Positions 52,516 to 61,909 of a stretch of DNA of 64,000 nt are shown piece by piece (position 1 is the first letter of the stretch; every line of letters begins with the position of its first letter). The position numbers were made by a program, and so were the translations under genes. The notes below the pieces were generated by a model, which was not told where the DNA came from, did no database searches, and saw only the letters and a program-made list of their open reading frames with translations. The stretch is taken from contig NC_047017.1 of assembly GCF_902652985.1 (NCBI RefSeq), positions 38,130,001-38,194,000 of the forward strand. The letters run 5' to 3'. This stretch comes from Pecten maximus. Taxonomy: Eukaryota.

Positions 52516-52594
52516 ATGGCCTGCAATACCATTACAGAGAAGTCGGCAAGACAGATCCTCAGGGATGTTGATAACTATGTCTTCGACTGTGCCG
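52516..52594 (+). CDS. PGP: HAD-IIA phosphatase (phosphoglycolate/glycerol-3-phosphate phosphatase-like), coding exon 1 of 8
   Basis: MACNTITEKSARQILRDVDNYVFDCA-G; phase-1 donor G|GTAGGA at 52595; acceptor-like TTTTCTAG at 52456 suggests an upstream non-coding exon. Symbol indicates family; may be a paralogue. Confidence 0.85.
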
Positions 52595-54280
52595 GTAGGA
52601 CACCTTAAACACTCATCATAACTCGCACATACACACATACTAGCACTATCAGGTTTGATTTGAGGTATATCGAGGATGGGAAAAGATATATATTGACTGT
52701 AAATACACAACGTTATGTCGTAAACATACATACATACTCATAAAAATCATTTCTTCTCCAACGAAATCAGATTAAACAGTATTGAGTTCGTGTGACCAAC
52801 AATCACGAAATCAATAGAAATAACTGGGATGTAGTCATGCGTGTTCACAGATGTTGACATGAAGTTAGATTGTGTACTTCCTGGTTTGACGATAATTTCG
52901 TACACCCATGTATCACTTCGTCTCCCACTCGAGAGAGATGTTCACAATTTTGGTCAGCAGCACTGTCACGTAACATTATCCTACGCACGTGCTGTCCTAG
53001 AAGTTGCGTGAACACACTACCAACCGTCACGTAAATGTCGAACGTGAACAGTTCACTTGCTTGCATACTTTTATTACATAAATATTTGAAGCCATTATGT
53101 AGACACATGTGTTGTAATTGAAATGCCTTGCGTATAACCCATGTTTCGGCAATGCCTACACCTCATTATGTATATATATGGTACTGGGAATTCATCTTAT
53201 TGTTTTTAATCATCCAGGTATGCGACAGAAAGCCTCAGGCTATACAGTCCAGCACTCTCTCGTCGGAAAGGGATCTTCCTATATCCATGTTTAGAAAAGA
53301 TTCTGGTCATCATTATATATTTGCTGAGATTTTGAAAATGCGTTCATGTATATACTATATCTTTAATTACAATTAAGACAAAACGTTTTCTTTTAATATA
53401 ATGAAAGTGCAAATAAATTGTAACAATAGCTTATTTTCTTTCTATTTAAAGTTGCCATTTTCCAGAAAATAACTACCACATCCTACATATTTGCATCCAT
53501 TTTTTTTCAATTATTACACGAATATTAAGATTTTTCTACATATTCCCTCATAGCACATAATTTGTATTTCATTCTGTAGAAAAAGCATATACCAGCGTGT
53601 TTATCATGACATGTAGTAAGTTGTTGCTAGTTGTTTGACCCCAGCTGAGTCAGCCGTCATTTCTCTGTCGTCTGTTGAGGTATACTTATCCCTAATACAA
53701 AGGTTTCTGATGTTTTATTGGCCTAAAATTATATGTTTTGGACCGACTAACATACACACATTTAAACAGATCAGTTCACTCAATTTATAATCCAACCCCG
53801 AGTTTCCAAAACATTTCGCGGCCATATTTGTATTGGCCACATTATGCAGGCCTCAGACCACAATTAATTTCCCTCTTTGTTCTACCAAAGAAAAATCGGA
53901 ATTAAAATATTTCAGAAGTTTGCAAAAAATCTAGGTTTCACATCACGTGTAGAACTATTCAAGCTGAACATACAGTGAGCTGGAAAGTACCCCATGACCG
54001 GCATTTAACAAAGATATTTATATTTAAGTGTAACCACTCTACTATATTGTAGGAAAATCCGGATAATCACAAAATATTACTACTCAAGCCTTATAACTCC
54101 CCGTGTTCTGCCTCACAAACAAACATGGAAATGGTGTCAAAACAAAATTCTGCCACTAGATTAAATATTGCACTATAAATCTATGCTAAAATTATGTCCA
54201 TATCTGTAACAGCTAAGTCAGGAAAAAATATTTAGCAACAGTCCTGAAATTTCAATATGTACTACATTCGTGTACAACGA

Positions 54281-54390
54281 CCCGGAAGTATAATTGTGGT
54301 CTGAGGCCATATGACCTGGCGAGATCCCGCGTGACACAGGGTAATACTCAGGCTGAACAGTGTTTCTTGCGAGACTTAAATCACGTGATT
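54281..54390. promoter_or_regulatory. Cluster of promoter-type motifs in the first coding intron of the PGP-like gene
   Basis: CCGGAAGT (ETS, 54282), TCTTGCGAGA (one mismatch to TCTCGCGAGA, 54365) and the AATCACGTGATT E-box palindrome (54379) within 110 bp. Confidence 0.35.
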
Positions 54391-54774
54391 CACAATACAA
54401 ATATGACCGCGAAATGTTTGCAAACTCCGAGTTGAATTATAAATTGAGTGGACTGATATGTATGTTTGTATGACGATTCGAGATATGCGTGTTTTTATCC
54501 ACAAGGTGGTATTGGTCGGCTGCCACCCTTTTTGAATATGTTAGTAGTTCTGATGTTAGTCGGCCCAAATAGCAGTTTTTAAAAGCCGCGAAAACATCAG
54601 AAACCTTCGGATTAACTTACCCGCATATGCGAATAAAAGGAATACTAACGCGGGGCCCTATTCAATTCGAGGTTTCCATTCCTGTCACATGGAGACATGG
54701 CAGATACCAAAATTTGTCCTTTTCCCCTTAGGTTTCTTAACTGTTTACAGCTTTTTTAGTTTGTGTTTGTCGTC

Positions 54775-55110
54775 TTTCTAGACGCCACTTTTAATATCAG
54801 ACTGGCTGTTCCCCTTGACACTAGACGCAAAAGTGTTCATATGATCCTGCCTTTTTGTTTCCCCTAGACGCCAGTTCTCATATGAGCCCGGCTGTTGGTG
54901 ACCCCATTTCACGTCAAGTCTCATATTATCCTGGCTGTTGGTGGACACCTACATGTAGATCATGCTTGTGTTCCTCTAGGCAGCAGGTCACAATTGATCC
55001 TGGCTGTTGGTGAACCCTCTGAACGTCAGCTCTCATATGACCATGGCTTTTGATAACCCCTCTTGACGTTCTCATATGACACTTGCCGTTTGTTGGCTTC
55101 CCCTAGACGC
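54775..55110. repeat. Highly degenerate ~43-bp tandem repeat
   Basis: Recurrent CTAGACGC...TCATATGA..CTGGCTGTTGGTG segments. Confidence 0.65.
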
Positions 55111-55315
55111 AATGTTTTCTTGTGCTTTTGGATTTTGACCACGCAGTTAACCTATAATAACAGCAAATACAATTACTTGATTGTTTAGAGATAAGAAAAA
55201 TTTTCAAAACAACATGAATCAAAATTTGAATATTTTGAGTATTTTTTATTTATATTTTAGAACTAGAATCTAGTTGAAATATTTAATGTAATCAACATGA
55301 CTGTGTACATTCCAG

Positions 55316-59463: not shown

Positions 59464-59605
59464 GTTCAGGAAGTATAGCGGCATCGGTGAAGGTAGCAGC
59501 CCGCCGAGAGCCCCTCGTGATAGGCAAACCAAACCCCACTATATTTGATGTCCTGAAAAGGGCTTATGGCCTCGACCCCAGAAGAACTTTGATGGTTGGA
59601 GACAG
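59464..59605 (+). CDS. PGP: PGP-like phosphatase, exon 7 (motif III and start of motif IV)
   Basis: TTTCCAAG|(C)SGSIAASVKVAARREPLVIGKPNPTIFDVLKRAYGLDPRRTLMVGD(R)|GTCAGT. Confidence 0.9.
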
Positions 59606-60486
59606 GTCAGTTTGTTGGTTCTATCCTTGTATTAAAACAGAGTAATCGATCATAGCGAAATTCAATCTTTTATTTTAGTTAACTCATTTTGTCGAAGAAG
59701 TCTACAGTTACTAGAATTTGTCTAATGGCTTGCTGCTAAAATAATCCGTCTATAGAGGATATCAAGCATACTTATTAAGGAAAATAAAATACGACTATAC
59801 AACACTTTTACCGTTAAACGAGATACAAAACGATTTACTTGAGATTTTCGTTTTGTCAATGAATTTGTACATCATTAAAAATCGCTCCGATAACTACGTG
59901 GAAGAATAATGACGAGACTGTGTTCTACGGTCATCTCCCGTTTTGATTCGAAATGGACAGGAATCTGTATGACTTTGTAAAGGTGTTAATTTTGACTTTG
60001 ATGCTAGCAGTTTAAAAGTGTAACTATAGTTATTGAATGTTAACTTTAGTATTCTTACTTTTGAACTACTACAAACTACTACTACTTTTGTAGTATTTTT
60101 ATCGATTTAACAGTTCCTTGTGAAGCTTCTAACGGAGGCGCCTGTTCATGGTCCACTTTTTACGATTTATTGGAAAGAGAAACAACTTAGCAGACTAGAA
60201 TCGGAGCATTTTAAATAATCATTATCCATTTATTTTGAATGTAAATGGGCATATTTAAAACATTAAGGGCGAGCGAATTTTGCAAATTAAAAAGTTAGGG
60301 ACCACTCATTGGGTTTATTAAAACCCGTCTATCGATCCTTTGATTTTTTTACTTGTTTTTCAAAAAATTTGAGTTATTGTGTATATAACCTGTATCAATG
60401 CAATTTTTAAATTCGTAAAAAAAAAGAGGTTAGACTTAGAACTCAGAACTCCCTTGCCATGTTGCTGTTACACTGTTATTTACACC

Positions 60487-61307
60487 CATTTACACCACTG
60501 TCACTGGGTAAACAGTAGTTCTCGTTATGTTTAGTCTTTATCATTTACATGTCTGTCAATGGTTAAACAGTAGTTCTCGTTATGTTTAGTCTTTATCATT
60601 AACACCTCTGTCTATGGTTAAACAGTAGTCCTCGTTATGTTTAGTCTTATCATTAACACCTCTGTCTATGGTTAAACAGTAGTCCTCGTTAGGAGAAGTC
60701 TTTATCATTTACACCTCTGTCTATGGTTAAACAGTAGTTCTCGTTATGTTTAGTCTTTATCATTAACACCTCTGTCTATGGTTAAACAGTAGTCCTCGTT
60801 ATGTTTAGTCTTATCATTAACACCTCTGTCTATGGTTAAACAGTAGTCCTCGTTAGGAGAAGTCTTTATCATTAACACCTCTGTCTATGTTTAACAGTAG
60901 TCCTCGTTAGGTTTAGTCTTTTTCATTAACACCTCTGTCTATGTTTTACAGTAGTCCTCGTTAGGTTTATTCTTTATCATTTACACCTCTGTCAATGGTT
61001 AAACAGTACTCCTTGTTAGGTTTAGTCTTTATCATTAACACCTCTGTCTATGGTTAAACAGTAGTCCTTGTTATGTTTAGTCTTTATCATTTACACCTCT
61101 GTCAATGGTTAAACAGTAGTCCTTGTTAGGTTTAGTCTTTATCATTAACACCTCTGTCAATGGTTAAACAGTAGTCCTTGTTAGGTTTAGTCTTTATCAT
61201 TAACACCTCTGTCAATGGTTAAACAGTAGTCCTCGTTAGGATAAGTCTTTATCATTTACACCTCTGTCAATGGTTAAACAGCAGTCCTCGTTAGGATTAG
61301 TCTTTAT
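60487..61307. repeat. 55-bp minisatellite, ~15 copies, in PGP-like intron 7
   Basis: ACAGTAGTCCTCGTTAKGTTTAGTCTTTATCATTAACACCTCTGTCWATGGTTAA; period 55 (60511, 60566). Confidence 0.95.
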
Positions 61308-61722
61308 AGTTTGCCGTCAATATTTAAGGAGTTGTAAAATGAAAAGTATATATATATTCATACTTCGATGAAATGTTTGAAATATTGATTGTTTTATGTT
61401 AGATCCCTTTTGAATTAAGATTATATTAAATCATAGAAAAACGTTGCAGAAAAACGTTATAAAGAAAAGTTCTACTGAAACTTATGACTGATATAGATAT
61501 TTAGTATTTAAACAAAGTTTATGTTATTATGATCCCATCTTACATTATATGACAACAACATGCTTGTGTGTTTGTTTATACGGTGTACTTGACAGCAAGC
61601 CACACAGATTGGATAGTGAACGAAAAATCTCAAAATCTTATGGTGTAGAAAATTCGTGGATAATTATCACTTTGAAAATTTCATCTGTAATTACATAACG
61701 GATTCATTCAAACTTTCGACAG

Positions 61723-61909
61723 GTACAACACAGACATAGCTTTGGCTAAGAATTGTGGACTATACTCACTGCTGGTTCTGTCAGGTGTTGTCAGTCAGGA
61801 AGACGTAGACAAAGACAAATTATCCACTGACCCTGAAGTCACACGGAATCTCCCAGATCATGTCGCAAAATGTCTCTGGGAATTTGGAAAGCACATCCCA
61901 GAATCATAA
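61723..61909 (+). CDS. PGP: PGP-like phosphatase, exon 8 (last; total CDS 921 nt, 306 aa)
   Basis: ACAG|(R)YNTDIALAKNCGLYSLLVLSGV...PDHVAKCLWEFGKHIPES*; completes GDRYNTD motif IV; all splice phases are consistent. Confidence 0.9.

Follow-up and report, generated by a model that had tools for sequence, protein, structure and literature searches.

The 64,000 nucleotides of Pecten maximus DNA analysed here (contig NC_047017.1, positions 38,130,001 to 38,194,000 of the forward strand; hereafter the window, whose numbering is used throughout) carry at 52516-61909 a spliced gene of the PGP family (glycerol-3-phosphate/phosphoglycolate phosphatase). In its product an alanine replaces the aspartate that acts as general acid/base two residues after the catalytic nucleophile (Asp+2). 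Judged by sequence comparison, the gene is a young, intron-containing and fast-evolving scallop PGP duplicate. We tentatively favor, with slightly less than even confidence, the reading that this duplicate has turned into a retained pseudophosphatase, a folded protein that would still bind Mg and phosphate and be nearly dead on glycerol-3-phosphate and phosphoglycolate. PGP serves in metabolite repair and is conserved. Scallops have two paralogues that lost Asp+2 independently and kept the nucleophile, beside an intact parent in the same genome, and these offer a clean three-protein test of whether an HAD protein without this residue is a pseudo-enzyme regulator, a phospho-trap or the carrier of a new chemistry.

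Gene model and the alanine at position 26

The original prediction, made from the letters of the window alone, described a complete spliced reading frame of 306 residues with canonical GT-AG sites, a D-C-A motif I and intact motifs II to IV, and all of these features were borne out. The eight exons on the forward strand total 921 nt (306 codons and the stop), all seven introns run from GT to AG, and the product is identical to XP_033735665.1 (P0006). Exon 1 (52516-52594) encodes residues 1-26 and the first base of G27, and includes motif I (F23-D24-C25-A26-G27) with the nucleophile D24 at 52585-52587 and the GCC codon of A26 at 52591-52593. Exon 2 (55316-55383, residues 27-49) contributes the flap and carries G32E, and exon 3 (55888-55983, residues 50-81) holds motif II (TNNS at 57) and R64. 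The C2A cap begins in exon 4 (56165-56302, residues 82-127), which also encodes N110. For exon 5 (57474-57536, residues 128-148) five start positions were tried; 57474 alone combines an AG acceptor with an open frame, and an acceptor at 57478 was rejected, since it breaks the frame. Exon 6 (57928-58075, residues 149-197) encodes the substrate-specificity loop, where LLTGED stands in place of ATNED (L181 at 58024-58026, G183 at 58030-58032). Exon 7 (59464-59605, residues 198-245) has PCSG in place of PGTG, followed by motif III (GKP at 218, with K219) and the first aspartate, D244, of motif IV (GDRYNTD at 243). Exon 8 (61723-61909, residues 246-306 and stop) supplies D249. A second RefSeq isoform (X2, P0002) lacks exon 3 and hence motif II. 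An alternative exon 1 encoding DCDG, which the original prediction had considered, was not found in the window by a six-frame motif scan and local tblastn, nor did these scans reveal a second PGP copy within the 64 kb.

We compared the window with contigs of four sequencing runs, each from a separate study. At least 24 runs matched, all under one organism label, and the search detects near-identical DNA only, so it is uninformative on other species. Run X5 is a DNA run, X19 is RNA on record, and three of the four runs are RNA or probable RNA. A spliced X19 contig of 169 nt (record 17, depth 3.1) joins 52495-52593 to 55315-55384, that is exon 1 to exon 2, with no other letters. The transcript thus reads GCC and not GAC at 52592, the position that the original prediction had singled out, and Ala26 is therefore not an assembly slip. 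X5 spans exon 1 and probably supports GCC as well: none of its listed differences falls at 52592, 2 of the contig's 4 differences lying outside the displayed rows. X13 does not cover exon 1. Companion changes recur in other runs. The codons for L181 and G183 are the same in X5 (record 29) and X13 (record 15). C198 and S199 recur in X13, which covers codon 198 from its second base on (record 16, no other letters over 59464-59590), and in X5 at the first base, X5 being without cover over about 59080-59347 and 59616-60151. Spliced pieces were present in all three RNA or probable-RNA runs examined: besides the X19 contig, X10 has a loose end at 59607 and runs from exon 7 into exon 8 sequence, and X13 contains exon-sized pieces within longer records.

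The D-C-A observation is confirmed. An assembly error or a private allele at 52592 is hardly credible. GCC is one base from GAC, a C>A change that could not be placed was tallied once each in X5 and X10, and contigs drop rare variants, so a rare segregating GAC allele might still be hidden. Against this reading stand the exact match of the spliced X19 contig, the presence of L181, G183, C198 and S199 in other runs, and the 51 changes specific to the branch.

Descent from PGP and repeated loss of Asp+2

Profile, fold and descent all place the window protein in the PGP family, as had been proposed. It scored 237.8 bits with TIGR01452 (PGP_euk, the eukaryotic PGP/PDXP model; cut-off 201.95). The predicted fold, based on a 70-row alignment (predicted local distance difference test score 96.5), is an HAD core with a C2A cap, and the best fold-search match was mouse PGP (7PO7; template modeling (TM) score 0.91, E 2.7e-33). 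Mouse PGP/AUM and PDXP/chronophin share this HAD IIA fold and cap (TM 0.91, 36-38% identity) and motifs II-IV; they differ at exactly the positions of interest, since D36, N199, G214 and T215 of mouse PGP correspond to A26, G183, C198 and S199. The canonical HAD set of nucleophile Asp, motif II Thr, motif III Lys and motif IV Asp pair is kept (retained residues are D24, T57-N58, R64, D185, K219, D244 and D249) and Asp+2 is missing. The canonical cap motifs TNxD and PGxG read TGED and PCSG here, where the N is found in 281 of 320 and the G in 276 of 320 other rows of the family alignment. The window protein is thus a PGP-family member in which both the DxD motif and the cap motifs expected of an active PGP are missing.

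Loss of Asp+2 is rare. The alignment contained 322 rows (9 proteins longer than 450 residues were left out), of which 292 had D24 and G27 in register. At position 26 these rows hold D 286 times, F four times and A twice, which supports the predicted loss of the general acid/base. Both rows with A are isoforms of the window gene, and the four with F represent one paralogue, hereafter paralogue B (Pecten XP_033752097.1, Argopecten XP_069133452.1, the second half of a fused Ylistrum model and a Logan protein). Asp+2 is therefore missing, among the 292 homologues with a readable motif, only in these scallop proteins and present in 286 of 286 other rows. Of the 30 rows left out, most are truncated or begin at a wrong start. 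In six, an altered motif I can still be read (P0211, P0233, P0260, P0284, P0289 and P0304), with D or E at +2 in every case. Four of these, the distant PGP-like proteins P0233, P0260, P0284 and P0289, lack the nucleophile Asp and keep an acidic residue at +2, the reverse of what is seen in scallops. By their sequences, they may be candidate pseudophosphatases in other lineages. Five accessions of the PGP proteins studied here and the Ylistrum locus tag were not mentioned in the literature searched, from which subscription journals and supplementary gene tables were excluded, and no paper on Pecten maximus phosphoglycolate phosphatase was found outside subscription journals. The single match for a scallop glycerol-3-phosphate phosphatase was a paper on an Antarctic clam.

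The closest intact relative is the canonical DCD-type PGP of Pecten maximus, XP_033752098.1 (P0003), which is 79% identical to the window protein without gaps over 306 residues and lies on another chromosome-size contig (44.8 vs 53.5 Mb). The window gene groups with this gene and its Argopecten and Ylistrum orthologues in one clade, with support of 100/98 in a 26-protein and 100/99 in a 14-protein tree. This nesting among scallop canonical PGPs agrees with its predicted status as a paralogue. The canonical genes differ in having intact DCD, TNED and PGTG motifs and short branches (0.04-0.10 for Pecten, Argopecten and Ylistrum vs 0.25 for the window gene), and P0003 has a basic leader of 32 residues. 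With Argopecten as outgroup, 52 changes are unique to the window gene and 5 to P0003. The protein tree neither established nor rejected a sister relationship to Pecten's own canonical gene (p 0.28 in the approximately unbiased (AU) test), and the alternative placement had a support of 46/53. None of the three loci returned by a metagenome scan for the parent's coding DNA came from a scallop-like gene (best identity 39-44%).

Upstream of exon 1, 71 nt before the ATG, the forward strand at 52418-52444 carries a probable out-of-frame remnant of the parental N-terminal leader, in which 8 of 9 residues equal those of P0003. It was the best of 426 window blocks (score 36 vs 31 for the next), and no such match was obtained with four other scallop-type leaders. 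The match had been spotted by eye before the test, and 1 in 426 therefore overstates its significance. This similarity suggests that the copy was made from the Pecten gene and that its leader has since decayed. Of 13 mollusc proteins of the DCD or canonical type, 12 have basic leaders poor in acidic residues, which may be mitochondrial presequences.

Paralogue B comprises P0168 (XP_033752097.1, Pecten), P0127 (XP_069133452.1, Argopecten), P0169 and the second half of P0001 (XP_060068256.1, Ylistrum). Like the window gene, it has lost Asp+2 and kept the nucleophile and metal ligands, and it has no leader. It differs in having Phe instead of Ala at +2 (motif I D-C-F), GDTPSTD as motif IV and intact cap motifs TNED and PGTG, and it is older, being present in three genera. 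Its motif II reads TNNSND. A tree forcing paralogue B and the window gene together was rejected (AU p 0.0004, with the motif column kept in); scallops have therefore lost Asp+2 twice, independently. In Pecten, Argopecten and Ylistrum paralogue B lies on the contig of the canonical gene. Across these genera it is 84-92% identical, compared with 87-91% for the canonical gene. Since it is conserved about as well as the canonical gene, a PGP without Asp+2 can be kept by selection. The Ylistrum balloti model P0001 (673 residues) appears to fuse a canonical PGP and the D-C-F paralogue; as these are separate records in Pecten and Argopecten, it is likely an annotation fusion of neighbors. Not covered by the original prediction were the additional changes in the cap, the existence of an intact parent, the decay of the leader and the older paralogue with D-C-F.

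A proposed retained pseudophosphatase and competing readings

In HAD phosphatases the first Asp of motif I forms the phospho-aspartate and the second acts as general acid/base (PMC8069645; bioRxiv 10.64898/2026.09.11.751015). Reported substitutions of the second Asp are severe: trehalose-6-phosphate phosphatase (T6PP) D215A has a kcat of about 0.0004 vs 24 per s (PMC4081830), and for HDHD1A D16A PMC12212127 reports that activity was not detected. In both enzymes Asp+2 contacts Mg through its main chain only (PMC4081830, PMC12212127). Because Asp+2 gives the metal only a main-chain oxygen, the window protein should still bind Mg2+ and a phosphoryl group. With Ala26 it would be unable to protonate an alcohol leaving group or to activate water, so turnover of glycerol-3-phosphate, phosphoglycolate and pyridoxal 5'-phosphate would be expected to fall by orders of magnitude, while an activated donor could yield a long-lived phospho-Asp24. 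The repair job would be done by the intact parent P0003. As the basic leader of the parent is lost, the window copy is probably cytosolic only. PGP dimerizes through its cap (PMC9652372), and we speculate that the folded protein with its reshaped cleft is kept most likely to bind phosphometabolites or to modulate the active PGP dimer through cap-to-cap contact. The working definition of a pseudophosphatase in PMC13216928 combines a mutated catalytic motif, a kept fold and expression, and the window gene shows all three. Few HAD pseudophosphatases have been described; TIMM50, named there as the only known human one, belongs to another HAD subfamily and has another role. The original prediction had left the choice between a neofunctionalised paralogue and a pseudophosphatase; the latter is the better reading of the present data, and the two substrate classes proposed for the former fared differently, as discussed below.

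The pattern of change was compared between the window branch, with its 51 branch-specific changes, and other tips of the tree. Among 60 columns conserved to at least 80%, the window protein departs at four (D26A, A181L, N183G and G198C) and P0003 at one. Changed columns make up 4 of 58 highly conserved vs 47 of 245 other columns (p 0.03; one of the four is a reversion to the family consensus), and the mean conservation of changed sites is below random expectation (p 0.008). The changes are concentrated in residues 61-87, with 15 in 27 residues (0 of 5000 shuffles matched), and exon 3 is the most changed exon (13 in 32 residues) as well as the one skipped in isoform X2; the last exon has 3 in 61 residues. 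As cleft-lining we took 49 sites, the cavity, flap and specificity-loop residues of mouse PGP (PMC9652372) mapped through the alignment. Such sites account for 13 of 51 changes on the window branch vs 2 of 37 on canonical tips (p 0.02) and 3 of 43 on paralogue B tips; relative to uniform placement the enrichment has p 0.058. No stop has arisen alongside 51 missense changes, which has a chance of 0.05-0.13 with frameshifts not counted. The severity of the changes in BLOSUM terms did not differ significantly from canonical tips (p 0.18), nor did the conservation of changed sites differ from paralogue B tips (p 0.27). Displayed coding variants among the runs comprise 2 missense (A2T, N110K) and 4 silent changes (p 0.03-0.07, with 20 rows outside the display); given the undisplayed rows and equally sparse intron differences, polymorphism lends weak support. 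In run X5, a difference at window position 56251 makes residue 110 a lysine, as in the parent, instead of the N encoded in the window; this cleft-lining site is still polymorphic.

Several observations weigh against a retained pseudophosphatase. The gene is a copy known from a single species: no DCA orthologue outside P. maximus was found in homologue searches, in a database that holds annotated Argopecten, Ylistrum and Mizuhopecten proteins. The comparison with sister species that the original prediction had proposed thus yielded no DCA gene in other scallops, and the gene is so far confined to one species. The cleft enrichment fits a new substrate equally well. In X5, missense changes (2 in about 430 sites) are at least as dense as intron differences (15 in about 4530 bases, counted by hand), and the signals of constraint may date from before the loss of function. 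Retention of the catalytic core alone is expected by chance at about 0.2 (17% change per site, 8 residues) and is not significant. Finally, the literature search found no data on PGP D36A; it also returned nothing relevant on NagD mutants.

An unlikely but serious contender is a neofunctionalised enzyme similar to LHPP. It would dispense with the general acid by acting on substrates with a leaving group that can depart without being protonated by the enzyme, such as pyrophosphate, phosphoramidates (phosphohistidine, phospholysine, phosphoarginine) or acyl phosphates, and its reshaped cap would pick the substrate. HDHD2 has DxSG as motif I. LHPP (2X4D) and HDHD2 (3HLT) are NagD-clade HADs, and LHPP, with Ser at +2, acts on phosphohistidine, phospholysine, pyrophosphate and imidophosphate (PMC11277029). 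Preservation of the nucleophile and metal ligands in both scallop lineages, whose losses were independent, is consistent with such a shift, as are the clusters of changes in the cleft and in residues 61-87 and the minimum of two base changes required for each of T61G, A181L and N183G. However, two-base changes are not clearly enriched overall (10 of 51 on the window branch vs 6 of 37 on canonical tips), neither Ala nor Phe can hydrogen-bond a water as Ser does, and no new general base was identified, E184 being shared with canonical mollusc PGP. With TIGR01458, which we take to be the LHPP/HDHD2-type model, the window protein reached 73.5 bits (cut-off 175.95), below the 85.7 of the intact P0003. 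LHPP and HDHD2 ranked 38 and 49 in the fold search. At 20-23% identity and in a separate subfamily, they provide an analogy and not a line of descent. The window protein lies outside the LHPP/HDHD2 and phosphonatase families.

We also regard it as doubtful, though not negligible, that the gene is a redundant duplicate in slow decay, in which catalytic function has gone, selection no longer acts or is fading, and the open frame and expression persist as remnants. In line with this, the changes fall on more conserved sites than those of canonical genes (mean conservation 0.43 vs 0.33, p 0.03), the rate is several-fold higher (52 vs 5 unique changes), the leader has decayed, RefSeq lists an isoform without motif II, and the gene is known from one species only. 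RNA contig depths of 2-23 on most exons point the same way, albeit as a poor measure of expression. Against decay, the frame is open, there is no indel relative to the parent in 306 columns, all 14 splice sites are intact, the most conserved columns are avoided and the last 61 residues hold only three changes. A window copy in simple decay would be of little importance and would leave the conserved D-C-F paralogue as the better target. A fast-evolving copy in a single species could be decaying; an assay is justified by the repeated loss together with this conserved paralogue, which is probably a better target than the window gene.

A bolder and rather improbable proposal unites both paralogues: scallops would have twice turned a PGP duplicate, once old and conserved (D-C-F) and once young and fast-changing (D-C-A), into an HAD enzyme free of a general acid that serves activated phosphoryl donors, for instance by attacking the P-N bond in phosphagens or phosphoramidates, or in which a long-lived phospho-aspartate works as a switch or as an intermediate in phosphotransfer. 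If true, the transition from PGP to LHPP-like chemistry would be captured in nature by the D-C-A gene, which shares 79% identity with the working parent.

Phosphonatase, also of the HAD superfamily, has DWAG as motif I and a C1 cap. A C-P-cleaving activity like that of phosphonoacetaldehyde hydrolase, which the original prediction had linked to mollusc aminoethylphosphonate lipids, is very improbable: Ala at +2 and the presence of ceramide aminoethylphosphonate in bivalves (PMC7431532) speak for it, but a Schiff-base lysine is required (PMC3266647), the only lysines gained (9 and 81) lie outside the 49 cleft-lining sites, the cap is of the C2A type as in mouse PGP, and no phosphonatase/PhnX-like model occurs among the 24 NCBIfam hits of P0006 (E<=0.01) or the 40 fold-search rows displayed.

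The scallop copies without Asp+2 have probably left the normal job, either to bind phosphorylated molecules or to take other such molecules as substrates, and two of the three Pecten genes found are probably less active than the RefSeq label "glycerol-3-phosphate phosphatase-like" implies. A resemblance between the cap string LTGED and the TGES motif of P-type ATPases, in which Glu replaces Asp+2, was rejected as evidence because E184 is already present in canonical mollusc PGP.

Repeats and neighboring genes

Intron 1 contains nested inverted repeats at 53693-54614, with outer arms at 53693-53716 and 54591-54614, inner arms at 53849-53885 and 54272-54308, and further arm pairs inside the outer ones. 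X5 contig depth rises here to about 17,000 compared with about 28 in the flanks, and the repeat is covered in all three RNA-type runs. It looks like a high-copy miniature inverted-repeat transposable element inside another. Tandem arrays with periods of 52, 55 and 36 at 50789-51861, 60487-61307 and 62456-63998 flank the gene and fill intron 7. Elsewhere in the window we found a RING-finger open reading frame (14284-15342, reverse strand), a Fuseless-family gene in two open reading frames (30939-32548, forward strand) and an open reading frame for a rhodopsin-family G protein-coupled receptor (40296-41285, reverse strand), each with no evident link to the phosphatase.

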